Part shown: positions 5,680-43,071 of the stretch, one piece after another
Layout of the letters: the number at the start of each line of letters is the position of its first letter
How positions within the stretch are numbered: position 1 is the first letter of the stretch
Assembly: GCA_035691305.1 (NCBI GenBank)
Contig: DASSJF010000038.1
Span: forward strand, 3,312 to 67,311
Length of the DNA: 64,000 nt
From: a bacterium
GTDB taxonomy: Bacteria; Sysuimicrobiota; Sysuimicrobiia; Sysuimicrobiales; Segetimicrobiaceae
Direction of reading: 5' to 3'
Made by a program: the position numbers and the translations under genes
The notes under the pieces: generated by a model
What the model saw: the letters and a program-made list of their open reading frames with translations, nothing else
The model's database searches: none
Told to the model about the DNA's origin: nothing

Positions 5680-5696
5680 CCCTTCTCCTCCGTCTC

Positions 5697-7032: not shown

Positions 7033-7035
7033 GCC

Positions 7036-7623: not shown

Positions 7624-7641
7624 GCGACCGCTCCGCCCGCC

Positions 7642-9917: not shown

Positions 9918-10263
9918 GCCTGGCTCCCGAGAACCTCGCGGACGACGAGCTCGACCGCCTTGGCGCGCCGCTCCTCCGCCTGCTTGCGGATGGCCGCGGC
10001 TTCCGCCTCGGCGCGCGCCACGATTTCCTTCCCGATGCGCTCGGCCTCGCGTGACGCCTCCGCGGAGGCGCCGGACGCGATGTCGCGGGCGCGGTCGCGG
10101 GCCCGCGCGCGCAGTTCCTCGCCCTGCCGCTGTGCCTGTTCCACGCGCCGGGTAGCCTCGGCGCGAGCGTCGGCGACCTGGCGCTGCAGCTCCTGTTCGC
10201 GCTGCGCGATCTCGCGGAGCAGGGCTTCACCCGATTGACTGCCGGGGGAATCGTGTGCGGTCA
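9914..10263 (-). CDS. V/A-type ATP synthase small coiled-coil subunit (G/H-type), the first gene of the operon.
   Basis: MTAHDSPGSQSGEALLREIAQREQELQRQVADARAEA... is about 116 aa and Ala/Glu/Arg-rich. The ATG follows AGGAG. The upstream part of ORF 9914..10405 was rejected. Confidence 0.6.
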
Positions 10264-11985: not shown

Positions 11986-11995
11986 CGGCCGGCCC

Positions 11996-13504: not shown

Positions 13505-15372
13505 CACACCAGCCTGACGACGACGATGAGGACGACGCCGAGGAACACGATCAGCAGATAGGTCTCTTCGCGCCCGGTCTGCAGATAGCGCAGGCCGAGC
13601 CCGAACCACCGGGCCAGCCAGCCGATCAGGTTCACGAGGCCGTCGACGACGTGGCGGTCGAACAACCCGGCGAGCCGCATCACGACGCCGCCGATTCCGA
13701 GGAAGACCCAGGCATAGAGGTCGTCGACGAAGTAGCGCCGCGCGAGCAGCGTATACAGCCACGGCAGCGCCTGCCGCAGCGACTCGGACGGCACGACGCG
13801 CCAGACATAGATCGCCGCGGCCGCGACCCAACCGGCGACGGCGATCGCGATCGACCCGAGGAGCAGGCCGAAGTTCGGCGGCGCCGGCTCGACGCCGGGG
13901 AAGTTGATGAACTTCTCGAACGGGTTGCCGAGCGACTCGGCGCCGATCCAGCCGAGAAACACCGCGAAGACGGCGAGAATCACGAGGGGCGCGACCATCA
14001 CGGCGGGGCTCTCGTGCGGACCGCCGTGCCCGTGCGCGGCCGCCGCGTGGGGATCGCCGCCGCGGTACGTGCCGGCAAACGTGTACCAGAGGAGGCGGCC
14101 CATGTACAGCGACGTGAGGAACGCCCCCGCCGCACCGACCGCCCACAACGCCCGGTTGTGCGCAAACGCCGCGGCCAGGATCTGATCCTTGCTGAAGAAT
14201 CCGGCGAACGGTGGAATGCCGGTCAGCGCGAGCGTCGCGGCGACGAACGTCCAGGTGGTCCACGGCAGGTACCGGGCCAATCCGCCCATCTGCTTCATGT
14301 CGTTGGTCGCGACGGCGTGGATCACGCTCCCGGCGCCGAGGAAGAGCAGCGCCTTGAAGAAGGCGTGCGTGATGAGGTGGAACATGCCGGCGGTGTAGCC
14401 GAGAACGCCGAGGCCGAGCATCATGTAGCCGAGCTGGCTCATGGTCGAGTACGCCAGCACGCGTTTGATGTCGTTCTCGACCACCCCCATCGTCGCCGCG
14501 GCCAGCGCGGTGACCCCGCCGATCCAGGCGACGACGGTCAGTCCCGCCTGGCCCGTCGTGAACAGGAAGAGCGGATAGGTGCGGGCGACGAGGTAGACTC
14601 CGGCGGCGACCATCGTCGCAGCGTGGATCAGCGCGCTGACCGGTGTCGGGCCCTCCATCGCGTCGGGCAGCCAGACGTGCAGCGGGACCTGGGCCGACTT
14701 GCCGACCGCGCCGCCGAAGACCAAGATGGCCGCGGCGGTCAGGAGCGGCCCGGCGAGCGAGCCGGTGTGGATGCCCTTGAACACTTCGTCGAACCGCAAC
14801 GAGCCCGTGTGGAGGAAGATGATCAGGATGCCGATCATCATCGAGAAGTCGCCGACGCGGGTCGTGATGAACGCCTTGAGCGCCGCCTTCGCCGCGGCCG
14901 GCCGTTCGAACCAGAACCCGATCAGCAGGTAGGAGCACAGGCCGACGAGCTCCCAGCCGGCGTAGATGAACAGAAAGTTGTCGGCCAGGACCAGGAACAG
15001 CATCGAGAACTGGAACAGCGACAGGTACGCGAAGAACCGCGGGTAGTGCTCGTCGCCGGCCATGTAGCCGACCGAATAGATCGTGATGAGTGACGAGACC
15101 ACGCCGACCATCGCCAGCATGATCGCGCTCAGCGGATCGACGACGAAGCCGACCGTGATCGGCCGGCCGCCGAGCACCGCCCACGTATAGGTGATATCGG
15201 CACGCGCCCCGCCGGCCACCTCGCCGAGCACGACCAGGCCGCCGAGCCCCGCCAGCACGATGCCGGCGATCGAGACGTAGGCGCCGCGGCCCCGGAGGCG
15301 CGGCCCGACGGCCGTGATCGTCGCGAACGCCGCGAGCGGCAGCAGCGGGATGATCCAGGCGATGTGGGTCAC
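13501..15372 (-). CDS. nuoL: NADH-quinone oxidoreductase subunit L (antiporter-like, long horizontal helix).
   Basis: 623 aa. MTHIAWIIPLLPLAAF... with NuoL/ND5 motifs. Confidence 0.9.
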   Translation of the reverse strand: MTHIAWIIPLLPLAAFATITAVGPRLRGRGAYVSIAGIVLAGLGGLVVLGEVAGGARADITYTWAVLGGRPITVGFVVDPLSAIMLAMVGVVSSLITIYSVGYMAGDEHYPRFFAYLSLFQFSMLFLVLADNFLFIYAGWELVGLCSYLLIGFWFERPAAAKAALKAFITTRVGDFSMMIGILIIFLHTGSLRFDEVFKGIHTGSLAGPLLTAAAILVFGGAVGKSAQVPLHVWLPDAMEGPTPVSALIHAATMVAAGVYLVARTYPLFLFTTGQAGLTVVAWIGGVTALAAATMGVVENDIKRVLAYSTMSQLGYMMLGLGVLGYTAGMFHLITHAFFKALLFLGAGSVIHAVATNDMKQMGGLARYLPWTTWTFVAATLALTGIPPFAGFFSKDQILAAAFAHNRALWAVGAAGAFLTSLYMGRLLWYTFAGTYRGGDPHAAAAHGHGGPHESPAVMVAPLVILAVFAVFLGWIGAESLGNPFEKFINFPGVEPAPPNFGLLLGSIAIAVAGWVAAAAIYVWRVVPSESLRQALPWLYTLLARRYFVDDLYAWVFLGIGGVVMRLAGLFDRHVVDGLVNLIGWLARWFGLGLRYLQTGREETYLLIVFLGVVLIVVVRLVW

Positions 15373-15379
15373 CGCGCGG

Positions 15380-15691
15380 TCACCACTTCATCAGGTTGAT
15401 CTCGTCGACGTAGACCGTCTCGAGGGTCCGGTACGCGGCCAGCACGAGCGCCAGGCCGACCGCGGCTTCGCACGCCGCGAGTGTGATCACGATCAGCGCG
15501 AAGATCTGGCCCTGCATCGCCCCCGGCGCGGCGTACTTGTTGAAGGCGACCAGGTTGATGTTGGCGGCGTTCAGCATCAATTCGACGCCCATCAGGATCG
15601 TCACGGCGTTGCGGCGCGTGACCACCGCGAACAGCCCGAGCGCGAAGAGCAGCGCGCTCACGACGAGGTAGTGCGCGAGGCCCGGCATCAA
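15380..15691 (-). CDS. nuoK: NADH-quinone oxidoreductase subunit K.
   Basis: 103 aa with 3 TM helices. MMPGLAHYLVVSALLFALGLFAVVTRRNAVTILMGVELMLNAANINLVAF is classic NuoK/ND4L. Confidence 0.85.
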   Translation of the reverse strand: MMPGLAHYLVVSALLFALGLFAVVTRRNAVTILMGVELMLNAANINLVAFNKYAAPGAMQGQIFALIVITLAACEAAVGLALVLAAYRTLETVYVDEINLMKW

Positions 15692-16182
15692 TCTTCCCGC
15701 CGCGCGATCATGATCGCGCCCATCAGCGAGATCAGCAGGACGATCGACGTACCTTCGAAGACCAGAATGTTCTGACGGAGAAAGCTCTGCCCGATCGCCC
15801 CGGGCGTGTACGGCGGCAGCGCGCCGGCGCCCGCGGGCCAGCCGGTGCGCGTCGAGACGGCGATCAGCAGCGCGGCCATCGCTGCGGCGACCGCGGTGCC
15901 GATCGCAGCCTGCTCGTTGCGCTGCCGGCCCCCGAGCCCCGTGCCGCCTTCGGTCAGCATGATCGCGAAGAGGATCAGCACGGTGATCGCGCCGGCGTAG
16001 ATCAGGACCTGGATGCCGGCCACGAACTCGGCGTTCAGCAGAATGTACAGGCCGGTGACGCCGAGGAACGCTGGCACGAGGGCCGCGGCGCTGTGCACGA
16101 TGTTGCGGCTGGCGACCACCACCACGCCGGCGCCCAGCGTGACGGCGGCCAGCACGTAGAAGGCGATCGCCTCGCCGGTCAC
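15688..16182 (-). CDS. nuoJ: NADH-quinone oxidoreductase subunit J.
   Basis: The C-terminal 164 aa of ORF 15688..16755 (VTGEAIAFYVLAAVTLGAGVVVVASRNIVHSAAALV...) are NuoJ/ND6-like. The GTG start gives a GTGA overlap with the nuoH stop, and the Arg-rich N-extension was rejected. Confidence 0.8.
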   Translation of the reverse strand: MTGEAIAFYVLAAVTLGAGVVVVASRNIVHSAAALVPAFLGVTGLYILLNAEFVAGIQVLIYAGAITVLILFAIMLTEGGTGLGGRQRNEQAAIGTAVAAAMAALLIAVSTRTGWPAGAGALPPYTPGAIGQSFLRQNILVFEGTSIVLLISLMGAIMIARRED

Positions 16183-17159
16183 GGGTGTCCCACCACCACG
16201 ACGAACGCGGTCACGACGAGGTTGAGCACGGACACCGGGATCAGGACCTTCCAGGAAAAGTTCAGCATCTGGTCGATCCGGAAGCGCGGATACGTCCACC
16301 GCACCCACATGAAGACGAAGATCAACGCGTACAGCTTGATGACGAACCACAGCACCGGCGGCAGCACCGGCCCACGCCAGCCGCCGAGGAACAGCGTAAC
16401 CGCCATCGCCGCCATCGCGAACATCTCGCCGTATTCGCCGAGCTGAAACAGCGCGAACCGCATCCCGCTGTATTCGGAGAAGTAGCCGGCGACCAGCTCG
16501 CTCTCCGCCTCGACCAGGTCGAACGGCACGCGGTTCACCTCGGCGATCGCCGCGATGAGGAAGATCAGAAAGGCCACGGGCTGGGCCACGATGTACCACA
16601 GACGCGCCTGGCCGTTGACGATCGTTACGGTCGACAGCGACCCCGCCATCAACGCGACCGTCACGAGCGCGAGCCCGATGGGGATCTCGTAGGTGACCAT
16701 CTGCGCGGCCGATCGCATGCCGCCGAGCAGGGCGTATTTGTTGTTCGATCCCCATCCCGCCATCAGGATGCCGATCACGACCAGCGACGAGGTCGCCGCG
16801 AAGTACAGCACGCCGATGTTCAGATCGCGGAAGATCAGCGGCCCGGACCGCGTGGTGCCGAACGGAATGACGACGTAGTCGAGCAGCGCCGCCAGCGGCA
16901 CGACGACGACCGCGCTCGCGAAGATGAGGCGGTCGGCGCGGTTCGGGACGATGTGTTCCTTCTGCAGAAGTTTAACCGTGTCGGCCACGGTCTGCAGCAG
17001 GCCCTGCGGCCCGACGTGCTTCGGCCCGAGGCGGCTCTGCATCCACGCGCTGATCTTGCGTTCGAGCAGCACGCCGAACATGACCGCGATGAACGCCACC
17101 GCGGAAAAGATGATGATCGTGCCGACGAACGCGCGGAGGATCTCCCAGAGCCAGTCCAT
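16179..17159 (-). CDS. nuoH: NADH-quinone oxidoreductase subunit H.
   Basis: 326 aa. ...QSRLGPKHVGPQGLLQTVADTVKLLQKE... and ...EVNRVPFDLVEAESELVAGYFSEYSG... are hallmark NuoH/ND1 motifs. Confidence 0.9.
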   Translation of the reverse strand: MDWLWEILRAFVGTIIIFSAVAFIAVMFGVLLERKISAWMQSRLGPKHVGPQGLLQTVADTVKLLQKEHIVPNRADRLIFASAVVVVPLAALLDYVVIPFGTTRSGPLIFRDLNIGVLYFAATSSLVVIGILMAGWGSNNKYALLGGMRSAAQMVTYEIPIGLALVTVALMAGSLSTVTIVNGQARLWYIVAQPVAFLIFLIAAIAEVNRVPFDLVEAESELVAGYFSEYSGMRFALFQLGEYGEMFAMAAMAVTLFLGGWRGPVLPPVLWFVIKLYALIFVFMWVRWTYPRFRIDQMLNFSWKVLIPVSVLNLVVTAFVVVVGHP

Positions 17160-17165
17160 CGCCGC

Positions 17166-17522
17166 CTAAGTCCACTCCAGGGCGCCGCGGCGCCACGCGT
17201 AGGCGAGGCCGAGCACCAGGATCACAAGAAACACCAACATCTCCCAGAACGCGAGCGGGCCGAGGCTGCGCGCGACCACCGCCCAGGGGTACAGGTAGAT
17301 GATCTCGACGTCAAACACGACGAAGACGAGCGAGAACAGGTAGTAGCGAACGTGAAACTGCGACCACGCCTGGCCGATCGTAGGCACGCCCGACTCGTAG
17401 GTCTCGAACTTCTGCGGGTAGTCGCTGCGCGGCGAGATCAGCCAGATGATGAGCAGAGGGAGCGAGACCATCCCCGCGCCGACGAGCGCGAAGATGGCGA
17501 CGTAGCCCCAATCGAGCAGCAT
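17166..17522 (-). CDS. nuoA: NADH-quinone oxidoreductase subunit A.
   Basis: 118 aa, NuoA/ND3-like (…FETYESGVPTIGQAWSQFHVRYYLFSLVFVVFDVEIIYLYPWAV…), preceded by the Shine-Dalgarno AAGGAGGGA. Confidence 0.85.
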   Translation of the reverse strand: MLLDWGYVAIFALVGAGMVSLPLLIIWLISPRSDYPQKFETYESGVPTIGQAWSQFHVRYYLFSLVFVVFDVEIIYLYPWAVVARSLGPLAFWEMLVFLVILVLGLAYAWRRGALEWT

Positions 17523-27775: not shown

Positions 27776-28990
27776 ATGGCCAGGATCAAGGTGAAAAATC
27801 CGATCGTGGAGATGGACGGCGACGAGATGACGCGGATCATGTGGCACTGGATCCGCGAGCGGCTCATCCTGCCCTACCTCGACCTCGACCTAAAGTACTA
27901 CGATCTCTCGATCCAGAAACGCGACGAGACCGAGGACCGCATCACGGTCGACGCCGCGAACGCGGTGCGCGAGTACGGCGTCGGCGTAAAGTGCGCCACG
28001 ATCACCCCGGACGAGGCGCGCGTCAAAGAGTTCACGCTCAAACAGATGTGGCGCAGCCCGAACGGCACCATCCGCAACATCCTCGACGGCACGATCTTCC
28101 GCGAGCCGATCATCTGCCGCAACGTGCCGCGAATCGTCCCGCAGTGGGACAAGCCGGTCGTGGTGGCCCGCCACGGCTTCGGCGACCAGTACCGGGCGCA
28201 AGATTTCCGGTTTCCGGGTCCGGGCACGCTCACGGTGTCGTGGACGCCCGCGGCCGGCGCGGCGCCGATCGCACGCGAGATCATCAAAGCCGACGGGCCC
28301 GGCGTCGTGCTCGGCATGTTCAACCTCGACAGCTCGATCCGCGGCTTCGCGCACGCGTGCTTCAACTACGCGCTCGACCGCGGGTACCCGGTGTATCTCT
28401 CGACCAAGAACACGATCCTCAAGGCGTACGACGGCCGGTTCAAGGACATCTTCCAGGAGGTCTTCGACGCGGAGTTCCGCGCAAGATTCGAGGCCGCGGG
28501 GCTCACCTACGAGCACCGGCTCATCGACGACATGGTCGCCGCGAGCCTCAAGTGGACCGGCGGGTACCTGTGGGCATGCAAGAACTACGACGGCGACGTG
28601 CAGTCGGACACGGTGGCACAAGGCTACGGTTCGCTTGGGCTGATGACGTCGGTCCTCACCTCGCCGGACGGCAAGGCCGTGGAAGCGGAAGCGGCCCACG
28701 GCACGGTCACGCGACACTACCGGTTGCACCAGCAGGGCAAGCCGACGTCGACGAACCCGATCGCGTCGATCTACGCGTGGACCCGCGGGCTGCAGTACCG
28801 CGGCCGGATGGACGAGACGCCGGCCGTAATGGACTTCGCGCTGTCGCTGGAACGCGTGTGCGTCGAAACGGTCGAGAGCGGCAAGATGACGAAAGATCTG
28901 GCGATCCTGATCGGCCCGAACGAGCCGTTTCTGACAACCGAGGCCTTCATGGACGAAATCGACAAGGGGCTCAAGCGCCGCGTCGTCTGA
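27776..28990 (+). CDS. icd: NADP-dependent isocitrate dehydrogenase (type II, eukaryote-like homodimeric, about 404 aa).
   Basis: [47 protein letters not shown]... The ATG follows GGAGAA. Confidence 0.9.
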
Positions 28991-29800
28991 TCACCCCTCG
29001 AGCAGAGAGCGCAGGCGGGGAAGTTCCCGGCGCACCGCGTCGGGGTCGGTCCCGTGATATTCGAAGGTGACGGCCGCCGGCTGGGCCGCGTCGAGCACCG
29101 TTCGCAGCAGCCGGTCGTCCTCGGCGCTCAAGGGCTCGTGTTCATCGAGCAGCACGCCGTCGCGCATCCGCGGCCCGCTGACGTGTACGGCGCGGACCCG
29201 CCCGAGCGGCAGCCGCGCCAGGTACTCATCGATGGGCAATGACAGCCGGGCGGCGGCGACGCGGGCGTGCGCGAGGTCGAGCAGAAACCCCGTGCCGGCC
29301 GCCTCGAGTACGTCCGTGATGAACCCGGGTTCGGATATGTATTCGTAGGCGCCCGAGGGCCAGTAATCCAGGTTCTCGAACAAGAGCGGGACCGGCAGGG
29401 CGGCCGCGAGCGCCCGGGCGTTCCGGGCGATCGCGGCCTGCGCGGCCTCTCGCGGGAGCACAGGGGAGCGCGGCACCATCATCGGCCCGTCCGCGGCGAC
29501 CCGCGTCGACGCGAACCCGAGATGCACGCTGAGCCACGGCGCCGCGGTCCGGTCGAGAATTTCACGGGTCGCGGACAACACGCCCGGCTCGTCAAGCGCG
29601 CGCGGATGCGCGAGCGACCAATTCCATACCGCGTTGTGCACGAACAGCCGCGCCCCCGAACCCGCGGCGGTGGCCGCCCGCGGGCCGCCGGTCTCGAGAA
29701 AGTCCACGCGGACAGCCGCGCCGGCGATCAACCGCCGTGCGAGATCGGTATCGCCGAGACCCAGCAGCGTGGGCACCGTACCTACCGTGTTTGCCGCCAC
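28991..29800 (-). CDS. DUF692/UPF0276 family protein (MbnB/TglH-like TIM-barrel non-heme iron enzyme family).
   Basis: PWLSVHLGF..., LLFENLDYWP, GFLLDLAHA, RVRAVHVSG and LLDEHEPL..VTFEY blocks align with DUF692 consensus blocks (SEHLa, ENi.yy, LLLDvnN, HLAGH, iDtH). It overlaps the upstream PduO gene by 19 nt, so the start is uncertain. Confidence 0.6.
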   Translation of the reverse strand: MAANTVGTVPTLLGLGDTDLARRLIAGAAVRVDFLETGGPRAATAAGSGARLFVHNAVWNWSLAHPRALDEPGVLSATREILDRTAAPWLSVHLGFASTRVAADGPMMVPRSPVLPREAAQAAIARNARALAAALPVPLLFENLDYWPSGAYEYISEPGFITDVLEAAGTGFLLDLAHARVAAARLSLPIDEYLARLPLGRVRAVHVSGPRMRDGVLLDEHEPLSAEDDRLLRTVLDAAQPAAVTFEYHGTDPDAVRRELPRLRSLLEG

Positions 29801-30342
29801 TCCACGTCGGGACGTCCGGCGGCCTGGTTCGCCGCGCGCGCAAGGACGAACAGCAGGTCGGACACGCGGTTCACGAACTTGAGGAGCTCGGGGTTCAGCG
29901 GCTCGTGCGCGGCGAGCGTCACAATCGCTCGCTCCGCGCGCCGCGCCACGGTCCGGGCGTGGTGCAGCGCCGCGGCCGTCGGCGTTCCGCCCGGCAGGAT
30001 GAACGCCCGGAGCGGCGGCAGCGCGTCCTCCAGCCGGTCGATCTCGCGCTCCAGCGCGTCGACCCAGGCGCCGGTGACACGGCTCGCGTGCGCGGCCGTT
30101 GCGGTCGCGGCCTCGGACGGGGTCGCCAGCTCCGACCCGACGTCGAACAAGTAGTGCTGCAGCTTCTCGATCACGGGCGCAATGGACGCGGGCGGATCCG
30201 TCGCACGCGCCACCCCGAGCACCGCGTTGAGCTCGTCGATTGCGCCGTACGCGGCCACCCGCGGATGGCTCTTGGGGACGCGCCGGCCGCCGAACAGGGC
30301 GGTGTCGCCCGCGTCGCCGGTCTTCGTGTAGATCCGCGTCAC
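29782..30342 (-). CDS. PduO-type ATP:cob(I)alamin adenosyltransferase (MMAB family).
   Basis: VTRIYTKTGDAGDTALFGGRRVPKSHPRVAAYGAIDELNAVLG is the PduO N-terminal signature. The GTG start gives a GTGA overlap with the peptidase stop. The N-extension of ORF 29782..31149 was rejected. Confidence 0.8.
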   Translation of the reverse strand: MTRIYTKTGDAGDTALFGGRRVPKSHPRVAAYGAIDELNAVLGVARATDPPASIAPVIEKLQHYLFDVGSELATPSEAATATAAHASRVTGAWVDALEREIDRLEDALPPLRAFILPGGTPTAAALHHARTVARRAERAIVTLAAHEPLNPELLKFVNRVSDLLFVLARAANQAAGRPDVEWRQTR

Positions 30343-32381
30343 TCGTCCGCCCGCGCGGCGGCGCGCCCGGTACCCGCCGCCTGCCCCGCCGCCTCGCCGC
30401 CGCCGGATACGAGGTACTGCCGAAACCACGCGGTGATGTGGCGCAGCCGTTCGAGACGGTGGCGCGGCTGTCCGTTTCTGGAGAGGTCGTGGCTCTCGTT
30501 CGGGAAGCGCACGAACAGAGTCGGTACCCCCTGCTTCTTGAGCGCGACGAAGAGCTGTTCGCCCTGCTCGATCGGACAGCGGTGGTCCTGCTCGCTGTGC
30601 AGGATCAAGAGCGGCGTGCGCATCTCGCGCACGTACGTAATCGGCGAGCGCTCGAGGTAGAATTGCGGCGCCTCCCACGGATCGCCCGGGTACTCCCACA
30701 TGCCTTTCATGTAGGCGAGGTCGGAGGTCCCCCACTGGCTGTAGGCGTTGCTGATGCTGCGCATCGTCGCCCCGGCCCGGAACCGCCGCGTGTGCCCAAC
30801 GATCCAGTTGGTCATGAAGCCGCCGTAGCTGCCGCCGGCGACGCCAAGCCGCTCGCGGTCGATCCACGGATGTTCGGCCAGGGCGCGGTCGAGCCCGCGC
30901 ATCAAATCCTCGTAGTCCTTGCCGCCCCAGTCGTGGCGCGTCGCCGCGGTGAACCGCTCCCCGTACCCTTGGCTGCCGCGGGGGTTGAGGTAGACGACGC
31001 CGTACCCCTCCGCCGCCAGCACTTGGAATTCGTGGAAGAACGCGTTGCCGTAGGCGGCATGCGGCCCGCCGTGAATCTCCAGTACGGCCGGCGCCTTCGC
31101 GCCGTACACCGGGTTGGTCGGGCGCATCACCCACCCTTCCACCGTCCACCCGTCCAGGCTCTCGAATTCGAAGCGTTCGGGCCGCGCGAGCGCGATCGGA
31201 CCCAGCGCCGGGCCGGTGAGGTCGGTCAGGCGGCGCAGCGGACTCCCGAGGTCGAATACGGCGATCTCACCCGGCGTGGCCGGGTCGCTCTCGATACAGA
31301 CCGCGCGCCGCGCCGCGGCATCGAGCGAGCAGCCGATCAGCTCGTGGTCGCCGCGCGTCTCGAGCCGGATCGCCCGTCGGGGCGCCGCGCCGGCACCCTC
31401 GCCGGGCGTGGGCGGCGACGCGGCCATCGACGCGATTTGTGTATTGCCGCCGTCGGAGACCATGAAGATGAGACGCGTACCGTCGCGGCTCCACGTCAGA
31501 CCGCCCGTCGGCGGGTGGACCCGCGAGTCGGTCGCGATGTGGTGACCGACGTTCCGGTCTTCGTGCGCGGTGAGGCAGACCGGCTCACCGCCGCCCGCGG
31601 GCACCGTCCACACCCCCCAGTTCGTGGCGGCCCAGCAGGCATTGTCGTGCCCGACGTAGGCGATGGTCCGCCCGTCCGGCGACCACGCGGGCACGGACGC
31701 CGGACCGCGGCTGTTGGTAAGGCACCGCGGCGATCCCCCGTCGATCGAGAGCACCCAAATATCCGACGTGTTGCTAAGATCGGCGTCGGGCGAGGCGTTG
31801 CCGGCGTACGCGAGCATCGTGCCCTCGGGCGACCACGCGGGCGTCAGGTGATCGTAGTCCCCCGTCGTGATCTGCCGCGCGCGTCCCCCCGCGGCGGCCA
31901 CGACGAAAATCTGTTTCCAGCGGCCGTCCCAGAAGCCTTCACCGTCCTGCTTGTAGCGCAGGCGCGAGATGACTTTGACGTCGCTCTCTTCGCGCGGGCG
32001 GGCGGCCTCCGGCTTCCCGACGAAGGCGATCCAGCGGCCGTCCGGCGACCAGACGGGATCCGCCGGCGACACCTTGCCGGAGGTGATCGCGCGGGCTTCG
32101 CCCCCGCCGACCGAGATGACCCAGAGCTGCTTGTCGCCGTTCCGGTCGGAGACGAAGACGAGGCGCGTTCCATCCGGCGACCATCGCGGAGAGGTTTCCT
32201 TGGCGGCCGCCGTCGTGAGCTGGCGCGGGTCTCCTCCCGCGGCCGGCACGAGCCACAGATTGATGCGGTAGGTGTTGGCGGCGCGGTCCGCCCGCGTCAC
32301 GGTGAAGGCGACCTGCTCGCCGCCGGGCGACAACTGCGGGTCGTTGAGCACCGGGATGGCGACGAGGTGGTCGATCGTCAT
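30339..32381 (-). CDS. S9 family peptidase (acylaminoacyl-peptidase/prolyl oligopeptidase-like; N-terminal beta-propeller plus C-terminal alpha/beta hydrolase).
   Basis: Repeated SP(R/A)WSPDG propeller blades. The catalytic domain has GGSYGG (nucleophile Ser) and the ...HSEQDHRCP... region. The start was set at MTIDHLV. Confidence 0.8.
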   Translation of the reverse strand: MTIDHLVAIPVLNDPQLSPGGEQVAFTVTRADRAANTYRINLWLVPAAGGDPRQLTTAAAKETSPRWSPDGTRLVFVSDRNGDKQLWVISVGGGEARAITSGKVSPADPVWSPDGRWIAFVGKPEAARPREESDVKVISRLRYKQDGEGFWDGRWKQIFVVAAAGGRARQITTGDYDHLTPAWSPEGTMLAYAGNASPDADLSNTSDIWVLSIDGGSPRCLTNSRGPASVPAWSPDGRTIAYVGHDNACWAATNWGVWTVPAGGGEPVCLTAHEDRNVGHHIATDSRVHPPTGGLTWSRDGTRLIFMVSDGGNTQIASMAASPPTPGEGAGAAPRRAIRLETRGDHELIGCSLDAAARRAVCIESDPATPGEIAVFDLGSPLRRLTDLTGPALGPIALARPERFEFESLDGWTVEGWVMRPTNPVYGAKAPAVLEIHGGPHAAYGNAFFHEFQVLAAEGYGVVYLNPRGSQGYGERFTAATRHDWGGKDYEDLMRGLDRALAEHPWIDRERLGVAGGSYGGFMTNWIVGHTRRFRAGATMRSISNAYSQWGTSDLAYMKGMWEYPGDPWEAPQFYLERSPITYVREMRTPLLILHSEQDHRCPIEQGEQLFVALKKQGVPTLFVRFPNESHDLSRNGQPRHRLERLRHITAWFRQYLVSGGGEAAGQAAGTGRAAARADE

Positions 32382-32481
32382 GCGGTGTGGAGCCCGGATC
32401 ACGCGTGTCCCTCCGGCGCGAAGTGCGTTCGGCGCGTTTCGCTTCGGCGGTGCGGAAAGCGCTCCCTCCGCACCGCCATCC

Positions 32482-33216
32482 CTAGACACCCGCCGCGAGG
32501 CGGCGCGACAAGAGCGTCGGCAGGCCGCGCCGTGCCATCTTCGCCTGCGTCGCGGCGATCGGATAGGCGACGCGGTGGAGCACGGCCTGAAGCCTCGCAT
32601 CGTCGAACACGAGATAGGCGGCGCGGGGATCGCCGTCACGCGGCTGGCCGACGCTGCCGGGATTGATGATGTAGCGGGAGGCGGCGGCGAGATCGAAGGG
32701 CGCCTCGGGAGGCAGCGCCTCGGTCCTGAGGTGCCCGTTCGGATGCCGGGCAAAGACCCCCGCGACGTGCGTGTGCCCGGCGAGACACACGCGGAAGTCG
32801 GCCTCGGCGAATACCGCGAGGGCGGTGGGCAGGTCCAGAATGTACTCCTCGACAGGACGCCGCGGACTGCCGTGCACCGCGACGAATGCCGGGGTGTCGC
32901 AACGCTCGGGCAGCGCCGCGAGGTAGGCGCGGTTGTCCTCGGTCAGCTCCTGCGCGGTCCATTCAATCGCCGCCCGTGCGAGCGGTGAGAACGCCGCGGC
33001 CGCGAGCTGGCCGACCGCGCCGCGATCGTGGTTGCCCGCGATCACCGCTCCCCCGAGGCGGCGCACCCGCTCGACGCAGGCGTTGGGGTCCGGGCCGTAG
33101 CCCACGACGTCGCCGAGGCACAGATATCCGTCCGGCGAACGCGGCGCCGCGTCGGCGAGCACGGCCTGCAGGGCCTCCATGTTCGCGTGGATATCCGAAA
33201 TGACCGCGTAGCGCAC
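32482..33216 (-). CDS. Metallophosphoesterase (calcineurin-like, YfcE/MPP family).
   Basis: MRYAVISDIHANMEAL...GDVVGYGPDP...GNHD motifs. Confidence 0.7.
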   Translation of the reverse strand: MRYAVISDIHANMEALQAVLADAAPRSPDGYLCLGDVVGYGPDPNACVERVRRLGGAVIAGNHDRGAVGQLAAAAFSPLARAAIEWTAQELTEDNRAYLAALPERCDTPAFVAVHGSPRRPVEEYILDLPTALAVFAEADFRVCLAGHTHVAGVFARHPNGHLRTEALPPEAPFDLAAASRYIINPGSVGQPRDGDPRAAYLVFDDARLQAVLHRVAYPIAATQAKMARRGLPTLLSRRLAAGV

Positions 33217-33228
33217 CGCGCTCGGTTC

Positions 33229-33888
33229 TCAGCGCCTCCGCCGGGCCAGCTCTGTGAAGATTTCGGTCGGGCTGATGCCTTGGTGCACGAGCAGGACGAG
33301 CGAGTGGAACCAGAGGTCGGCGGTCTCTTCCACAAGACGGCGGGAAGTCTCCTTGCGCGCCGCCCGCGCGACTTCCGCGGCTTCTTCCATCACCTTCTCG
33401 TTGAGCCGTGCCACGCCTGCGGTGAACAATCCGGCGGTGTATGAGCCCGCGGCGGGCGCTCGCCGGCGCTCGGCGAGCACGGCGGCCAACTCTGTGAGGA
33501 TCTCGGGCCCGGCCGTCCGCGGGGTCTCCGCGACCGCCCCCGCCGGACCGCCGGCCAGACGGCCGTCGGGCGCGACCGAGCGGAAGAAGCACGAGCGGTG
33601 TCCCGTATGGCAGGCCGGCCCCGTTTGCTCCACCTTCAATAAAATCGCGTCGCCGTCGCAGTCGCCCCGTACTTCCACGACGCGCTGGGTGTGGCCGGAG
33701 GTCTCGCCCTTCCGCCACAACTGCCGCCGGCTGCGGCTCCAGTACCATGCCTGACCGGTGGCGAGAGTGCGCTCGAGGGCCTCTCGCGTCATGTGCGCGA
33801 CCATCAGCACCTCTCCGGTCGCGGCATCCTGCGCCACCACCGTCACCAGTCCGGAAGCGTCGTAGATCACCCGATCGGCGTCGTTCAT
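33229..33888 (-). CDS. hisI: Bifunctional phosphoribosyl-AMP cyclohydrolase / phosphoribosyl-ATP pyrophosphatase.
   Basis: 219 aa. The HisI domain (...[23 protein letters not shown]...[10 protein letters not shown]) is followed by the HisE domain. The ATG overlaps the hisF stop as ATGA. Confidence 0.85.
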
Positions 33889-34700
33889 ACGTGCCCACCT
33901 CCGGCCGCGGGGCGTCCTGCCGGCCGGACGAGGATCCCCGCGGCCGCCATCGCGGCTTTCACCGCCGCGATGCTGTGCGTCCGGTAATGAAACACAGACG
34001 CGGCCAGGACCGCGTCGGCGTCGGCGGCCGTGACCGCCTCTACGAAGTGCCGGGGCGCGCCAGCCCCGCCCGACGCGATCACCGGGATCCGGACGGCCCT
34101 CGTCACGGCCCGCACCAGGTCGAGATCGAACCCGTCCTCGCGACCGTCCTGGTCCATGCTGGTCAGGAGGATCTCCCCGGCCCCCAGCGCCGCGGCGCGC
34201 GCCGCCCACTCGACCGCATCCAATCCGGTCGCGCGGCGGCCCCCGTGCGTGAAGACGTCCCATCGCGGCGACGCGGTGCGGGCGCCGGGTCCGGGGCCGG
34301 CGCGCTGCGCATCGATCGCCACCACGATACACTGGCTGCCGAACTGCTCGGCGCCCTCGCGGATCAACTCGGGGCGCCGGACCGCCGCGGTATTGATGCC
34401 GACTTTGTCCGCGCCGGCGCGCAGCATGCGGCGGAGGTCCTCGACGGCCGCCAGCCCGCCGCCCACGGTGAAGGGAATCGTCAGCACCTCCGCGGTCCGC
34501 CGGACGATCGTTTCCATGATCCCGCGGCCCTCATGGCTCGCGGTAATGTCGAGCAAGACCACCTCATCGGCCCCCTCGCGATCATAGACCGTAGCGAGTT
34601 CCACCGGGTCGCCGGCGTCGCGCAGATCGACGAAGCGCGTCCCTTTGACGACGCGGCCGTCCTTCACGTCGAGGCACGCGACGACGCGGCGCGCGAGCAT
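33885..34700 (-). CDS. hisF: Imidazole glycerol phosphate synthase cyclase subunit.
   Basis: [36 protein letters not shown]... is canonical HisF. Confidence 0.9.
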
Positions 34701-34728
34701 CAGCGCCCCGCCGCGGGCATTCGCGCGA

Positions 34729-35469
34729 TCATGCCGGCCCCCGATCGCCGGCCGCCGCGGCGAGAAGGTCCTGCAGCCGCACGCTGCCTTCGTACAGCGC
34801 GCGCCCCACGACCGCCCCTTCCAGCCCCGCGGGCTCGAGCCGGCGGAGGCGTCGCAGATCGCCGGCGGACGTCACGCCGCCTGCGACGATCACGGGGACC
34901 GCGGCCGCCGCCAGGAAGGGCTCGAGCGACGCCACGTCGGGGCCGCCGAGCATGCCGTCGCGGCGCGTGTCCGTGTAGACGATGCGCCGCGCGCCGGCCC
35001 CGACGACCCGGGCCGCGGCCTCCGCCACCGTGAGCGGTGTCGCGGCCGTCCACCCTTCGGTGACAACGCGGCCGTCGCGCGCGTCGATCGCCGCCGCGAT
35101 CCGCCCGCCGAAACGCGCGCAGGCCGCGCGGAGCAGCTCGGGCGCGCTCACCGCGGCCGTCCCGAGGATCACGCGGGCCGCGCCGGCGTCGAGCAGCCGC
35201 TCGATCGTCGCGAGGTCGCGCACACCTCCGCCGACCTCGACCGGGACGCCGGCCTCGGCCAGAATGCGGCCGACGGCGTCGGGGTTGCCGGGGCTCCCGG
35301 CGAACGCGCCGTCGAGGTCCACCACGTGCAGCCAGCGCGCGCCGGCCGACGTCCAGCGGCGGGCGGCCGCCACCGGATCATCGTCGTACACGCGCTCGCG
35401 GCGCCGCTCGCCCTGAATCAGCCGCACGGCCTTGCCGCCGCGGATGTCAACCGCCGGCAGCACCAACAC
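34729..35469 (-). CDS. hisA: Phosphoribosylformimino-5-aminoimidazole carboxamide ribotide isomerase.
   Basis: [20 protein letters not shown]..., a (beta/alpha)8 HisA. Confidence 0.85.
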
Positions 35470-36073
35470 CGGCGGCCCACCGCGCGAAGTTGTTCAGGAT
35501 CCGTTCGCCGACCTCGCCCGACTTCTCCGGGTGGAACTGCGTCGCCCAGAGATTGCCGCGGCCGGCCACCGCGGCGATGTCGGCCCCGTACGAGCAGGTC
35601 GCAGCCACGAGCGTGGGATCCGAGGGCGCGCAGTAGTACGAGTGCACGAAATAGACGTAGTCCCCCGAAGCAACACCGTCGAGCAGCGGGCACGTCCGCT
35701 CCACCCGCAGCTGATTCCAACCCATGTGCGGCACCTTCACGGAATCCGGCAGCCGGACGACCCGGCCCGGCAGGACGCCGAGCCCCCGGGTCACGCCGGC
35801 TTCGACGCTCTCATCGAAGAGGAGCTGCATCCCGAGGCAGATGCCGAGGAAGGGCCGCCCGGACCGGACGTACGCGCGAATCCGCTCCGCGAACCCCGCG
35901 TCGGTCAGCCGGGCCATCGCCGGCCCGAACGCGCCGTCGCCGGGCACGACGAGCGCCGCGGCCGCATCCAGATCCCCAGGATCGTCGGTCACCCGGACGT
36001 CCAGGCCGCGCCGGCGCAGCCCCATCCCGATGCTGTGGAGGTTGCCGGCGCCGTAGTCGGCGACCACGATCAC
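35447..36073 (-). CDS. hisH: Imidazole glycerol phosphate synthase glutamine amidotransferase subunit.
   Basis: MIVVADYGAGNLHSIGMGL..GICLGMQLL..FHPEKS triad motifs. Confidence 0.85.
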   Translation of the reverse strand: MIVVADYGAGNLHSIGMGLRRRGLDVRVTDDPGDLDAAAALVVPGDGAFGPAMARLTDAGFAERIRAYVRSGRPFLGICLGMQLLFDESVEAGVTRGLGVLPGRVVRLPDSVKVPHMGWNQLRVERTCPLLDGVASGDYVYFVHSYYCAPSDPTLVAATCSYGADIAAVAGRGNLWATQFHPEKSGEVGERILNNFARWAAGVGAAGG

Positions 36074-36699
36074 TCGAGCGTTCCCTTCGTCGACGGCACG
36101 CCGGCGACGCGCGGATCGCGTCCCGTCGCGCGGTCCAGTGCGAGCGCGACGGCCTTGAACGCCGCTTCGATGATGTGATGGGCGTTCCGGCCGTGGAGGA
36201 GCATGAGGTGCAGCGTGATCCCCGCGTTCACGGCGAAAGCGCGGAAGAACTCTTCCGTGAGATCCGTGTCGTAGGCGCCGAGGCGCTGGCGCGCGAGAGG
36301 CACCGCGTAACGGAGGAACGGCCGGCCGCTCACGTCCACCACCGCGAGGACCAGCGCCTCGTCGAGCGGCGCGTGCGCGTCCGCGTACCGGAAGATGCCG
36401 GCGCCGCCGCTGATCGCGTCCTTGAACGCCCGGCCCAGCGCGATCCCGACGTCCTCGACCGTGTGGTGCGCGTCGACCTCGAGGTCGCCGGACGCCGCGA
36501 CGACCAGATCAAACCGCCCGTGGCGCGCGATCTGCTCCAGCATGTGATCGAGAAAGGGCACGCCCGTCGCGATCTCCGCATCGCCCGTCCCGTCGAGGTT
36601 CCAGCGGACGTCCACCTTGGTCTCGCCGGTCGCGCGCGACGCGCGGCCGACACGCGCCGCGGCCTCCTCGGCCGCGCCGTCCCGCTGGACGGGGCTCAC
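36070..36699 (-). CDS. hisB: Imidazoleglycerol-phosphate dehydratase.
   Basis: RETGETKVDV-like RATGETKVDVRWNLDGTG..., HHTVEDVGIALG and HIIEAAFKA motifs. Confidence 0.85.
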   Translation of the reverse strand: MSPVQRDGAAEEAAARVGRASRATGETKVDVRWNLDGTGDAEIATGVPFLDHMLEQIARHGRFDLVVAASGDLEVDAHHTVEDVGIALGRAFKDAISGGAGIFRYADAHAPLDEALVLAVVDVSGRPFLRYAVPLARQRLGAYDTDLTEEFFRAFAVNAGITLHLMLLHGRNAHHIIEAAFKAVALALDRATGRDPRVAGVPSTKGTLE

Positions 36700-38006
36700 T
36701 CGTCCACCCCGCGGGCGGTCACCGCGAGGACGTGCGCCGGAAAGTCCTCATACCGCCCGAGCCGCTCGACGACCGGACGGACCGCGGCCAGCCCGCGCGC
36801 GTCCAGGGCGGCCACCGAAGTCGCCTTGAGGTAGCTCATCACGGTCACCCCCGAAGCGACCCGGGCGAACCCGGACGTGGGCAGCGCGGCGGGGACGCCG
36901 ATGGCGTAGTTGCCGGCCGAGAACGGCGTGTCTTGTCCGAGCAGCACTTCGCCGGCGTGCCGGATGGTGCCCAGGGTCCCGAGCGGATCGCGCGTCGCGA
37001 TCTGCAGATGCTCGGGCGCGTACAGATTGACGAACGCGATCGCTTCTTCCATCGACCGGGCCAGAATCGCGCCGCCGTAGCCGCGCAGCGCCGCCTCCGC
37101 GAAGGCGCGGCGGCGCGCCGGAATCCGCGCGAGATACCGCGGCAGACGCTCCTGGACATCGTCGATCAGCGCTTCGGAGACCGTCACGAGAACGGCCGCG
37201 GAGTCCGTGCCGTGTTCCGCTTCGTTCAAGAGGTCGAGCGCGAGCCGGTCCGCGTCCGCCGTCTCGTCGGCGAGGATCATCGACTCGGTCGGCCCGAGCA
37301 CCGACAGGAGGCGGACGCCTCGGGACTGCACGGCGATCTGCGCGGCGGTCACGTAGGGGTTGCCGGGACCGCCGAGGACCCGGACGCGCGGCAGGGTGGC
37401 GGTGCCCGACGCCAGCCCCGCGATGCCGGCCACGCCGTTGCACCGGTAGACCCGCGGAACGCCGAGCATGTCCGCGGCGACCAAGATCGCCGGGTCGACG
37501 CTGCCGTCGGGCCGCGGCGGGACGACGACGGCGATCTCCTCCACCCCGGCGACGACCGCCGGCGTGACGAGGGTCACGAGCGTCGAGGGAAACGTGCCCT
37601 TCCCGCTCGGAACGTACACGCCCGCGGCGTCGATCGGCGTCCACTTCACGCCGGCCGTGATGCCCGGCTCCAACTCGTCGAGCGTGAGACCGGCGGGACG
37701 CAGGCGTTCGTTGTAGCGCCGCGCGCGCGCGATCGACGCGGCGAGCGCGGTGCGCAGCCCGTCGTCGATCTCATCGTACGCCTTCCGCACCTCCGTCCGC
37801 GCCACGGCGAGGCGCTCCGGCGTGAGGGTGACCTTGTCGTACTGCGCGGTGTAGTCCACGATCGCCGCGTCCCCGCGCCGCTCGACGTCGGCGATGATGC
37901 CGGCGACGTGCGCGACGCGCGCCGGGTCGAAGATCTCGGCGCTCGACCGCCGCAAAATTTGCTGCAGGCGGTCGGGCGGCGCATCGGCGAGACGGACGAC
38001 GTCCAC
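36696..38006 (-). CDS. hisD: Histidinol dehydrogenase.
   Basis: The C-terminal about 436 aa of ORF 36696..39188 carry HisD motifs. A GTG start (VDVVRLAD...) follows GGAGGGAG. An alternative GTG at 38024 gives a GTGA overlap with hisG. The Arg-rich N-extension was rejected. Confidence 0.85.
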   Translation of the reverse strand: MDVVRLADAPPDRLQQILRRSSAEIFDPARVAHVAGIIADVERRGDAAIVDYTAQYDKVTLTPERLAVARTEVRKAYDEIDDGLRTALAASIARARRYNERLRPAGLTLDELEPGITAGVKWTPIDAAGVYVPSGKGTFPSTLVTLVTPAVVAGVEEIAVVVPPRPDGSVDPAILVAADMLGVPRVYRCNGVAGIAGLASGTATLPRVRVLGGPGNPYVTAAQIAVQSRGVRLLSVLGPTESMILADETADADRLALDLLNEAEHGTDSAAVLVTVSEALIDDVQERLPRYLARIPARRRAFAEAALRGYGGAILARSMEEAIAFVNLYAPEHLQIATRDPLGTLGTIRHAGEVLLGQDTPFSAGNYAIGVPAALPTSGFARVASGVTVMSYLKATSVAALDARGLAAVRPVVERLGRYEDFPAHVLAVTARGVDE

Positions 38007-38020
38007 GGCGCTCCCTCCGT

Positions 38021-38659
38021 TCACACGATCGGCGGCGCGGCCACGGCCGACCGCACCCGCTCGATCACCGCGGCCACGGCCTCGGCGCGGCTGCGCAGGC
38101 TGATGCGGTTCACGACGAGCCGCGCGGTCGACTGAAACAGCTCCTCGACCTCGACGAGACCGTTCTCGCGCAGCGTCCGCCCGCTCATCACGAGATCCAT
38201 GATCCCGTCGGCCAGCCCGACGAGCGGTGCCAGCTCCACGGTGCCGTTCATCGGAATGATCTCCACCGGACGGCCCTGCGTCCAGAAGCGGCGCTCCGTC
38301 ACGCGCGGATACTTCGTCGCGATGCGCAGCGGCGACAGCCGCTCCCAGGTCGCGGCGAGCCGCCGCGGAAACGCCAGCACGCCGCGGCAGGTTCCGAACC
38401 CGAGGTCGACGAGCTCGTAGACGTCCCGGCCCTGCTCGAGCAGCACGTCCTTGCCGGCAATGCCGAGGTCGGCGGCGCCGTGCTCGACGTACGTCAGCAG
38501 GTCGACGGGCTTGGCGATCAGGCAGCGCAGGCCGGCCTCCGCCCCCTCCACGATCAGCCGCCGGCTGTCCCGCCAGGCCGCGCCGTCGAGGTAGCCCGCG
38601 GCGTCGAGGATGCGCATCGCCCCGTCCAACAGCCGGCCCGACGGCACGGCGACCGTCAC
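38021..38659 (-). CDS. hisG: ATP phosphoribosyltransferase, short form (needs HisZ).
   Basis: VTVAVPSGRLLDGAMRILDAAG... is about 212 aa. The start is uncertain (GTG, overlapping the hisZ 3' end by about 33 nt). The N-extension of ORF 38021..38974 was rejected. Confidence 0.75.
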   Translation of the reverse strand: MTVAVPSGRLLDGAMRILDAAGYLDGAAWRDSRRLIVEGAEAGLRCLIAKPVDLLTYVEHGAADLGIAGKDVLLEQGRDVYELVDLGFGTCRGVLAFPRRLAATWERLSPLRIATKYPRVTERRFWTQGRPVEIIPMNGTVELAPLVGLADGIMDLVMSGRTLRENGLVEVEELFQSTARLVVNRISLRSRAEAVAAVIERVRSAVAAPPIV

Positions 38660-38691
38660 GAGCGGCGCGTCGCCCGGCGTACGCCCGCGCG

Positions 38692-39987
38692 TCACGGCGC
38701 GGTTCCCCGCGCGGCGGCGCCGGGGTCCGCCACCACCTCGGCCGCCGGAACGACGTGCTCCGACGCGGCGCCCTCCCGGACGCGCGCGGTACCGCGCCCG
38801 ACGAGGACCGCGCGCGCGATCCCGCGGCGCGCCGCCTCCGCCGCAACCTGGTCCCACGGGCGTCCGAGCACTTCCAGCGCGACGGCGAACCCACGCGCGC
38901 GAAGCGCGCGCGCACACGCCGCCGCCTCGGCCGCGCACCCGGGCTCCGCGGCCAAGACGACATCCGGCAGCCACGCCTGGCCCGTTCCGCCGGGCGCATC
39001 GCCGTCTTCCGCGGCCAGCACGCGTTCGAGGCGGATCGCAAATCCCGTCGCCGGAAGCGGCACTCCGAACCGCTCCAGCAGCCGGTCGTAACGGCCGCCG
39101 CCCAGGAGCGGCGCGCCGAGCGAGACGGTGTGGCCCTCGAAGACGATGCCGGTGTAGTAGTCGAAGTCGCGGATGATGCTGAGGTCAAACGTCACGGCGT
39201 CCGCCACGCCGTGCGCGGCGAGCGCTTCGCCGAGACGCTCCAGGTCGCGCACGACGTCGCGGCCTTCGGGCGTGTGTACCAGGCGGCGCGCCTCCTCCAA
39301 GGCGCCCGCGCCGCGCAGCGCCGGCAGCGCCATGAGCGCGTCGAGCCGCGCCGCGGGCGCGCGGCGGCGCTCGAGCAGGTTGCGCAGGCCGACGAAGTCT
39401 TTCTGGTACAGGAGCTCCCGCACGCCGCCCGCGTCGTCGCCCGCGAGGTCGAGCCCCGCGAGCACGCCCTGCAGAAAACCGACGTGACCGAGACTCAGCG
39501 AGAAGTCGGACGCGCCCGCGGCGCGCAGCGCGCCGACCGCCAGCGCGACGATCTCCGCGTCCGCCTCCACGCTCTGGGAGCCGATCAGCTCGCACCCGGC
39601 CTGCGGAAACTCGCGCAGCCGCGCGGCGCCGGTTTCGCGTCCGCGGAACACCCAGCCGGCGTAGGCGGCGCGCAGCGGCGCCGGCTCGTCCCGCAGGCGG
39701 GTCGCGACGAGCCGCGCGACCGGCGTCGTCATCTCCGGACGCAGCGCCAGCAGCTCGCCGCCGCGGTCGACCAGCTTGAACAGCCGGTCCGCGGCGTCGG
39801 CGCCCTCGCCCCGCACCAGGACGTCAAGGTACTCGAGCGTCGGCGTGACGACCTCACGGTACCCCCAGCGGGCGGCCTCCGCGAGCACGCCGGCCGTCGC
39901 CGCCCGAAGACGCGCGGCCTGCCGCGGCAGCCAGTCGCGGGTGCCGGAGGGGATCAGCTGCCAGCGCTCTCGCGGATCGCGGTGCAA
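38692..39987 (-). CDS. hisZ: ATP phosphoribosyltransferase regulatory subunit HisZ (HisRS paralogue).
   Basis: 431 aa, class II aaRS-like core without an anticodon-binding domain, sitting in front of short-form hisG. A TTG start follows GAGGTAAAG, with an AT-rich promoter-like stretch upstream. Confidence 0.8.
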   Translation of the reverse strand: MHRDPRERWQLIPSGTRDWLPRQAARLRAATAGVLAEAARWGYREVVTPTLEYLDVLVRGEGADAADRLFKLVDRGGELLALRPEMTTPVARLVATRLRDEPAPLRAAYAGWVFRGRETGAARLREFPQAGCELIGSQSVEADAEIVALAVGALRAAGASDFSLSLGHVGFLQGVLAGLDLAGDDAGGVRELLYQKDFVGLRNLLERRRAPAARLDALMALPALRGAGALEEARRLVHTPEGRDVVRDLERLGEALAAHGVADAVTFDLSIIRDFDYYTGIVFEGHTVSLGAPLLGGGRYDRLLERFGVPLPATGFAIRLERVLAAEDGDAPGGTGQAWLPDVVLAAEPGCAAEAAACARALRARGFAVALEVLGRPWDQVAAEAARRGIARAVLVGRGTARVREGAASEHVVPAAEVVADPGAAARGTAP

Positions 39988-42813: not shown

Positions 42814-43071
42814 TTACGCGGTTGCCGGCGCGCGGCCGCAGCGCTCGGGCTTGAGCACGCGCACCGTCGAGGCGGGATGCCGGGCCAACGCGGCCGCGGG
42901 CCGGATCGGGCGCGGAACGAGGCCGCCGCCGCAGTTCGGACACCGGCCGCGGAGAATCCTCTCCGCGCAGCCGCGGCAGAAGGTGCACTCGAAGGAACAG
43001 ATCATCGCGTCCGCCGCATCCGGCGGGAGATCTCGGTCGCAGCACTCGCAGTTGGGACGAATCTCCAACAT
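42814..43071 (-). CDS. DUF1272 zinc-finger domain protein.
   Basis: MLEIRPNCECCDRDLPPDAADAMICSFECTFCRGCAERILRGRCPNCGGGLVPRPIRP matches the DUF1272 Cys pattern. Confidence 0.6.
   Translation of the reverse strand: MLEIRPNCECCDRDLPPDAADAMICSFECTFCRGCAERILRGRCPNCGGGLVPRPIRPAAALARHPASTVRVLKPERCGRAPATA

Follow-up and report, generated by a model that had tools for sequence, protein, structure and literature searches.

The described enzymes closest to the gene considered here are MbnB and TglH, the DUF692-family multinuclear non-heme-iron enzymes (MNIOs) of the methanobactin and 3-thiaglutamate systems, each of which works with a partner protein of the MbnC/TglI type and a precursor. All characterized MNIOs act on ribosomal peptides and nearly all require a partner, and in the canonical systems a bufABC-type gene order is strictly conserved (PMC12452194). 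Which MNIOs work without a partner is still open, the sole named case being MovX, and gene clusters that lack partner genes remain unexplained (PMC12452194). The landscape study of the family gathers the genes that precede and follow MNIOs (PMC12452194), and the published family surveys take neighboring precursor and partner genes as their point of entry (PMC12452194, PMC12257519); clades that lack these genes are therefore not described in them. In this study, we followed up a DUF692 gene in a 64,000-nucleotide stretch of DNA (contig DASSJF010000038.1, positions 3,312 to 67,311; hereafter the window) from a bacterium of the Segetimicrobiaceae, where it lies downstream of genes for an S9 beta-propeller peptidase and a PduO-type cobalamin adenosyltransferase. 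A sequence-only reading had named these three proteins correctly, as profile matches confirmed (PF00326 and PD40; PF01923/TIGR00636; PF05114), and had taken the trio for either an uncharacterized tailoring system or a case of DUF692 acting on a non-peptide substrate. The reading that we favor, with a probability of about 0.6, is that the three genes are neighbors by descent in a compact, high-GC genome and that the MNIO belongs to an uncharacterized, partner-less clade, here called the 'DxxH' clade, with an intact three-metal site.

Gene order in related genomes separated the MNIO from its two upstream neighbors. A backbone composed of the histidine-biosynthesis (his) operon, a metallophosphoesterase gene, S9 and PduO was found in the same order in five contigs of an uncultured soil lineage (L007, L085, L086, L087 and L089), and what follows PduO varied among the relatives. 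The MNIO follows in L089, in which S9 is 88% identical to that of the window, and in L090, in which S9 is cut by the contig end and its identity was not measured. In L007 (81%), an opposite-strand uppS gene comes first and then the MNIO (slot 6109-6882). In L085 (84%), nothing follows PduO, which ends only 18 nucleotides (nt) before a gene of the isocitrate/isopropylmalate dehydrogenase (Iso_dh) family (7621-7640), and nothing follows it in L087 (70%) either, while L086 (79%) carries a PhdYeFM antitoxin/PIN toxin pair (7776-8500) and L088 (62%) lacks PduO itself. Moreover, neither S9 nor PduO was present within 8 kb of the clade MNIO at 73 of 74 species loci, the exception being a sister species. 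Because the slot after PduO varies in the relatives and clade MNIOs occur without S9 or PduO at these 73 loci, the trio is not a unit. In this lineage specifically, S9 and PduO form a conserved pair that closes the string of the his operon and the metallophosphoesterase gene; the content of the slot between PduO and the Iso_dh-family gene varies, and the MNIO is an accessory gene there. The S9, PduO and MNIO genes are thus neighbors by descent and not a pathway.

The close packing of the three genes is the norm of the window, whose G+C content is about 70%, and does not rise above its background. Among 54 co-directional neighbor pairs, 19 overlap and 20 more are separated by 30 nt or less (39/54 together), and tight packing is also found in unrelated pairs, such as DUF881 with a CLP1-like P-loop protein and RapZ with a holin-like protein. 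The sequence-only reading had taken co-expression to be likely from two gene overlaps. The GTGA shared by the S9 stop and the PduO GTG start, a 4-nt overlap, can be read directly from the sequence and recurs in five relatives (L007, L085, L086, L087 and L089). The 19-nt overlap between PduO and the MNIO, however, is probably an effect of choosing the longest open reading frame (ORF) for the latter, with a GTG at 29800, and a 5-nt gap is likelier. The spacing makes co-transcription of the trio likely; the MNIO, occupying the variable slot after PduO, would probably be co-transcribed simply through its position, and the three genes would be functionally independent.

The rival explanation to which these data speak most directly is that S9, PduO and the MNIO constitute a novel peptide or small-molecule tailoring pathway in which, for example, the MNIO modifies, the peptidase trims and PduO supplies a corrinoid cofactor. 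Such a pathway would account for three genes tightly packed on the same strand and for a PduO-to-MNIO order that recurs in three lineage members, and some MNIO clusters in the literature do hold proteases and B12-dependent radical S-adenosylmethionine (SAM) enzymes (PMC11002830; PMC12257519). It is nevertheless highly improbable in view of the relatives that keep S9-PduO without the MNIO (L085, L086 and L087), the uppS gene that interrupts the order in L007, the 73 loci without either gene, the ordinary spacing and the lack of any radical SAM, precursor or exporter gene nearby; in addition, the S9 protein scored 186 bits against a cutoff of 400 with the lasso-peptide isopeptidase model, and its family is large and of housekeeping type. 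The earlier proposal of a tailoring system made up of this trio fails accordingly, as the trio is not conserved. The narrower idea that PduO supplies cofactor to a B12-radical SAM partner, an arrangement known from the apy and pbs clusters, was rejected on the same lack of a radical SAM gene. The trio is an ordinary adjacency, and it warns against reading a pathway into genes that overlap or abut in a compact, high-GC genome.

The MNIO matched PF05114 (MbnB_TglH_ChrH) with an E value of 2.5e-20 and 73.3 bits (cutoff 25). The match is confined to profile positions 58-244; the N-terminal 60 residues are divergent but were modelled as barrel strands 1-3. The predicted structure is a confident triosephosphate isomerase (TIM) barrel that is closest to TglH and MbnB among solved structures, although sequence identity to the structures of the MbnB and TglH systems (PDB 7TCR, 7DZ9, 7FC0 and 8HCI) is only 15-22%. 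Judged by its profile scores, the protein appears to lie outside every characterized subfamily that has been modelled (MbnB, ChrH, ApyH, BufB and HvfB), and no NCBIfam equivalog cutoff was reached: BufB gave 57 bits against 310, HvfB 47 against 360, ChrH 21 against 600 and MbnB 19 against 325. The top curated model was that of ApyH, the aminopyruvatide MNIO (84.2 bits over residues 72-267, cutoff 400), whose cluster contains ApyI, a partner with a RiPP recognition element (RiPP, a peptide made by the ribosome and modified after translation), a P450, a B12-dependent radical SAM enzyme and a methyltransferase (PMC11002830); none of these stands beside the window MNIO. Translation probably starts at the GTG at 29776, which gives a protein of 261 amino acids (aa) and the 5-nt gap to PduO. 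This start is likelier because homologues begin 2-4 residues ahead of the first strand ('MLGLNDGDL', 'MVGVRDDEL'), gene calls in relatives run to 260-263 aa with gaps of 26 and 61 nt after PduO, the codon-usage score favors it, and residues 1-10 of the model have a low predicted local distance difference test (pLDDT) score. An exact-sequence look-up of the 269-aa ORF returned no match because the deposited relatives (P0001) differ by about 1%.

The metal ligands were assigned by aligning a clade profile to the solved structures and reading it against the published ligand lists of MbnB (PMC9060507) and TglH (PMC10880893). The predicted Fe1 and Fe2 ligands H55, H93, E142, D175, H206 and E247 align to MbnB H54, H90, E133, D163, H192 and E239, and these positions are kept in at least 93% of 127 clade representatives. 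At Fe3, D219 and H221 are conserved. The third ligand position, which holds Asn in all four solved MNIOs (N166 in MbnB, N187 in TglH), is occupied by His in the window protein (H178) and is nearly invariantly His in the clade (34/34, and 125/127 clade members). These alignments make it plausible that a third metal site is present and chemically different, and the His found there should bind the third metal more tightly than the Asn ligand does in MbnB or TglH. The sequence-only reading had allowed for a copy without its metal-binding residues; instead, every ligand position is kept, and the structure prediction that it had suggested gave the expected DUF692 barrel, with nine putative ligand positions conserved in the alignment of the clade to solved MNIOs. 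The MNIO is probably functional, with a three-metal ligand set that appears intact and selectively maintained.

The partner protein and the precursor peptide of the canonical systems were sought in the window and across the clade. No DUF2063-type partner was found within about 10 kb in precomputed Pfam calls on near-identical contigs, and the unannotated ORFs of the window gave no match to DUF2063 or another relevant Pfam family; the missing partner, which had been remarked upon from the sequence alone, is therefore real for the window. The same two sources contained no radical SAM, exporter or precursor-like gene near the MNIO. A hidden Markov model of the clade, run on six-frame ORFs, recovered this MNIO and no second one in the 64-kb window. 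Directly before the gene there is no room for a precursor ORF, given the 5-nt gap or overlap with PduO. Furthermore, no partner gene lies up- or downstream of the MNIO at about 77 clade loci, and no conserved small ORF was detected within 1.5 kb of clade MNIOs, where the search returned nothing but wrong-frame translations of low complexity and conserved genes read in alternative frames. The earlier remark that no precursor ORF is evident thus holds for the window and, within this distance, for the clade.

A single Cys-rich small ORF is present in the window. It encodes 85 aa with 10 Cys residues, has a third-position G+C content (GC3) of 0.87, matches DUF1272 (PF06906, 102 bits), was missed by the gene caller and sits in a 424-nt gap between a membrane-protein gene and a leuB-like gene. 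It was rejected as a substrate of the MNIO because it lies 13 kb from that gene and none of the 90 fetched loci contains it.

These searches bear on a second rival explanation, in which the MNIO is a canonical enzyme of RiPP type whose partner and Cys-containing precursor are encoded in trans, so that the local context is uninformative. The precedent of the characterized enzymes and of the unexplained partner-less clusters (PMC12452194) argues for it, as does the fact that the closest models and structures (ApyH, 84 bits; BufB, 57 bits; TglH) are those of peptide-modifying enzymes. However, gene order of the bufABC type is strictly conserved in canonical systems, yet neither partner nor precursor occurred at about 77 diverse clade loci; the MNIO scores far under every equivalog cutoff; and the window has no DUF2063 gene, no second MNIO and only a Cys-rich DUF1272 ORF that is never found near clade members. 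This explanation is regarded as unlikely. MovX, from a methanobactin-like cluster of Vibrio, resembles the clade in having no separate partner protein (PMC12452194), a likeness drawn by description only; its extra winged helix-turn-helix domain is thought to replace the partner within a RiPP cluster that includes a precursor, whereas the clade proteins are bare catalytic domains without a cluster.

A third rival explanation arises from the metal site. Endonuclease IV (Nfo/End; PDB 1QTW and 5ZHZ) shares the xylose-isomerase-like TIM-barrel superfamily with the MNIO, and its ligand pattern matches: an alignment with the Mycobacterium tuberculosis enzyme also places His at the Fe3 Asn position. 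In Escherichia coli Nfo, the nine ligand types of the trinuclear site, including the His after the Asp of the DxxH motif, are presumably the same as in the window MNIO. The clade could then consist of endonuclease IV-like or other hydrolytic trinuclear (Zn/Mn/Fe) TIM-barrel enzymes, such as phosphodiesterases or nucleases, that merely score best against MNIO models. Against this, the sequence and structure scores of the window MNIO to endonuclease IV are far weaker than those to MNIOs, the family cutoffs were not reached (PF01261, AP_endonuc_2, 18.7 bits against 31.1; deoxyribonuclease IV model, 14.8 against 244), and no DNA-repair context was found. We consider this explanation improbable.

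Under the favored reading, that of neighbors by descent with a partner-less MNIO, the enzyme would act in the cytoplasm as an O2-dependent, multi-iron oxidase, and its substrate would bind directly to the metal cluster with no need for a partner that recognizes peptides. Such a substrate would have to be encoded or produced away from this locus; it might be a small molecule, or else a protein or peptide supplied in trans. The other half of the sequence-only reading, DUF692 action with no peptide encoded nearby, perhaps on a substrate other than a peptide, is consistent with the clade-wide lack of partner, precursor and conserved neighbor. More tentatively, the 'DxxH' clade may hold the first MNIOs able to dispense with both a partner and a cis-encoded peptide. 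They would be minimal three-metal oxidases of the cytoplasm whose substrate is a small molecule or a housekeeping protein and whose third site, all His and carboxylate, is of the endonuclease IV type; this is a possibility on which we would not yet rely. If true, the clade could mark a branch between hydrolytic TIM-barrel metalloenzymes and RiPP-modifying MNIOs. On sequence criteria, what appears to be new in the MNIO, within a known superfamily, is the combination of no partner, no precursor and an altered third-site ligand. No description of this clade was found in the MNIO landscape study (PMC12452194) or in the other literature searched. A well-populated and strongly constrained clade with these properties gives a defined target with which to explore a possible reach of MNIO chemistry outside RiPPs.

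The clade contains at least 346 clusters at 50% identity (E<=1e-30), and nearly all members are single-domain proteins of 255-290 aa, about 260 aa being typical. The sole long outlier in the representative library, a protein of 2768 aa (P0276), combines DUF218, fragmented MNIO stretches and a cytidine-deaminase domain; it was rejected as an informative domain fusion and most likely represents several adjacent bacterial genes merged by the gene caller. A scan with one genome per species yielded the 74 clade loci. Most of their hosts belong to the Chloroflexota (Anaerolineae and others) or the Deinococcota (Trueperaceae and Deinococcales); a few are Bacillota, Armatimonadota or members of other groups. 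Distant members in the cultured Calidithermus chliarophilus DSM 9957 and Deinococcus xinjiangensis make the clade experimentally approachable. The gene maps showed neighbors that differ from lineage to lineage, and an all-against-all BLAST of the ORFs within +/-5 kb at 77 loci found no family in more than 10 loci. Recurrent neighbors were response regulators and kinases, asd/hom, cytochrome bd, FabG/FabD/FabK, acyl-CoA dehydrogenase, GNAT with M29 aminopeptidase and an extracytoplasmic function (ECF) sigma factor; they were rejected as partners, having no common theme and each cluster being limited to closely related genomes.

Some of these local arrangements may be recorded. In six Deinococcales metagenome-assembled genomes (MAGs; L063, L065, L067, L069, L071 and L074) that carry a distant subclade of the MNIO (about 33% identity), a gene for a 153-aa GNAT acetyltransferase-like protein begins 10-68 nt after the MNIO, an M29-type aminopeptidase-like gene follows it where the contig is long enough, and a large pilin-like gene precedes the MNIO; this arrangement may be synteny by descent because the genomes are closely related. 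Two MAGs of Anaerolineae/Chloroflexota (L040 and L042) both have FabK- and FabD-like genes upstream of the MNIO; a FabG-like short-chain dehydrogenase/reductase (SDR) gene stands directly before it in L040, and the L042 map has no SDR there. Two further MAGs, L068 (labelled Capsulimonadaceae) and L073 (Armatimonadota), have an SDR gene that runs over the MNIO stop, with an overlap of 16 nt. The link between SDR and MNIO is a weak one and could come simply from a resemblance common to SDRs in general.

The two upstream neighbors are full-length, high-scoring and ordinary members of their families (S9 compared with PDB 8WT1 and 5YZM, PduO with PDB 2ZHY and 3CI1), and apart from the 4-nt overlap, which is kept within this lineage only, nothing about them is notable beside known members. 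In the S9 protein, a PD40/Tricorn-like beta-propeller at the N terminus precedes a C-terminal alpha/beta hydrolase domain with a GGSYGG nucleophile motif. It matched the solved S9 peptidase 8wt1 (507 bits) and the Deinococcus radiodurans acyl-peptide hydrolase 5yzm (313 bits) over its full length, and the GGSYGG motif and the downstream Asp and His regions are identical to 8wt1 in the alignment. With 7520 homologues at E<=1e-30, the nearest named one being from Armatimonadota (56%), it would be placed in a very large, housekeeping-type family, and it is probably cytoplasmic. Gene calls in relatives are 7 codons longer (687 aa). The PF01923 match of the PduO protein spans profile positions 1-170 of 171, and its match to corrinoid adenosyltransferases in the PDB reached an E value of 1e-44. 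The coordinates of all features are collected in Table 1.

Table 1. Features of the window and the evidence on which they were assigned (position 1 is the first letter of the window).
Feature	Position	Strand	Evidence or remark
DUF692/MNIO-superfamily TIM-barrel metalloenzyme, 'DxxH' clade	28991..29800 (longest ORF, 269 aa); probable 28991..29776 (261 aa)	-	
Predicted Fe1 ligand codons	H55 29638-29636; H93 29524-29522; E142 29377-29375	-	E142 bridging
Predicted Fe2 ligand codons besides E142	D175 29278-29276; H206 29185-29183; E247 29062-29060	-	
Predicted Fe3 ligand codons	H178 29269-29267; D219 29146-29144; H221 29140-29138	-	
PduO-type ATP:cob(I)alamin adenosyltransferase, 186 aa	29782..30342	-	PF01923 E 4.2e-61; TIGR00636 PduO_Nterm 195.6 bits, cutoff 108.45
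S9 family serine peptidase, acylaminoacyl-peptidase type	30339..32381	-	PF00326 E 1.4e-54, 185 bits; PF07676 (PD40) x4
Iso_dh-family gene	27776..28990	+	PF00180 Iso_dh on identical gene in L001/L002; convergent with the MNIO gene; context, not partner
Metallophosphoesterase	32482..33216	-	PF00149/PF12850 on identical gene in L002; 100 nt upstream of the S9 gene
Histidine-biosynthesis operon (hisIE, hisF, hisA, hisH, hisB, hisD and further upstream his genes)	33229..39987	-	Pfam on relatives
DUF1272 ORF	42814-43071	-	
V/A-type ATPase-like operon	1754-10144	-	Sizes and N-terminal sequences
NADH-dehydrogenase-like membrane subunits	10504-17522	-	Sizes and N-terminal sequences
Peroxiredoxin-like and metallo-beta-lactamase-fold genes	53762-55965	+	
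Cupredoxin/multicopper-like protein, 277 aa	59991-60824	+	Sequence
ORF-poor stretch	60825-62064		1.2 kb without a convincing ORF
tRNA gene	61948-62020	-	Rfam, 67 bits

The his operon, metallophosphoesterase, S9, PduO and MNIO genes form one co-directional string, according to the gene map and to calls on near-identical soil-metagenome contigs. For the his operon, Pfam calls on relatives were PRA-CH/PRA-PH, His_biosynth (twice), GATase, IGPD and Histidinol_dh, and the two most upstream his genes were assigned by position only. A facing string consists of the Iso_dh-family gene, an NfeD gene and then genes for succinate dehydrogenase, malate dehydrogenase and succinyl-CoA ligase, and the trio thus lies in a housekeeping-rich stretch of core metabolism. 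The stop codons of the Iso_dh-family gene (+) and the MNIO (-) fall on neighboring bases, 28990/28991 (TGA/TCA), with no intergenic nucleotide, and this abutment is also found in the near-identical contigs L001 and L002 and in L089. Because the stop codons abut, there is no space for a terminator between the two genes. A promoter and terminator scan of 28500-33500 gave no match, a result that is uninformative at 70% GC.

Several other features of the window were observed in passing. The ATPase-like operon appears to include large subunits of 608 and 471 aa, small subunits and a membrane subunit of 651 aa, and what looks like a run of genes for NADH-dehydrogenase-like membrane subunits follows it on the same strand. 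An Rfam search of the window found one tRNA and no rRNA. This tRNA gene closes the ORF-poor stretch, which lies inside the 2-kb bin of lowest G+C content in the window (0.641, 60001-62000) and could be the remnant of an integration site, and the cupredoxin/multicopper-like gene stands alone. The peroxiredoxin-like gene overlaps by 4 nt with the metallo-beta-lactamase-fold gene, which carries rhodanese-like domains, and the two could form a persulfide/thiol-stress pair.

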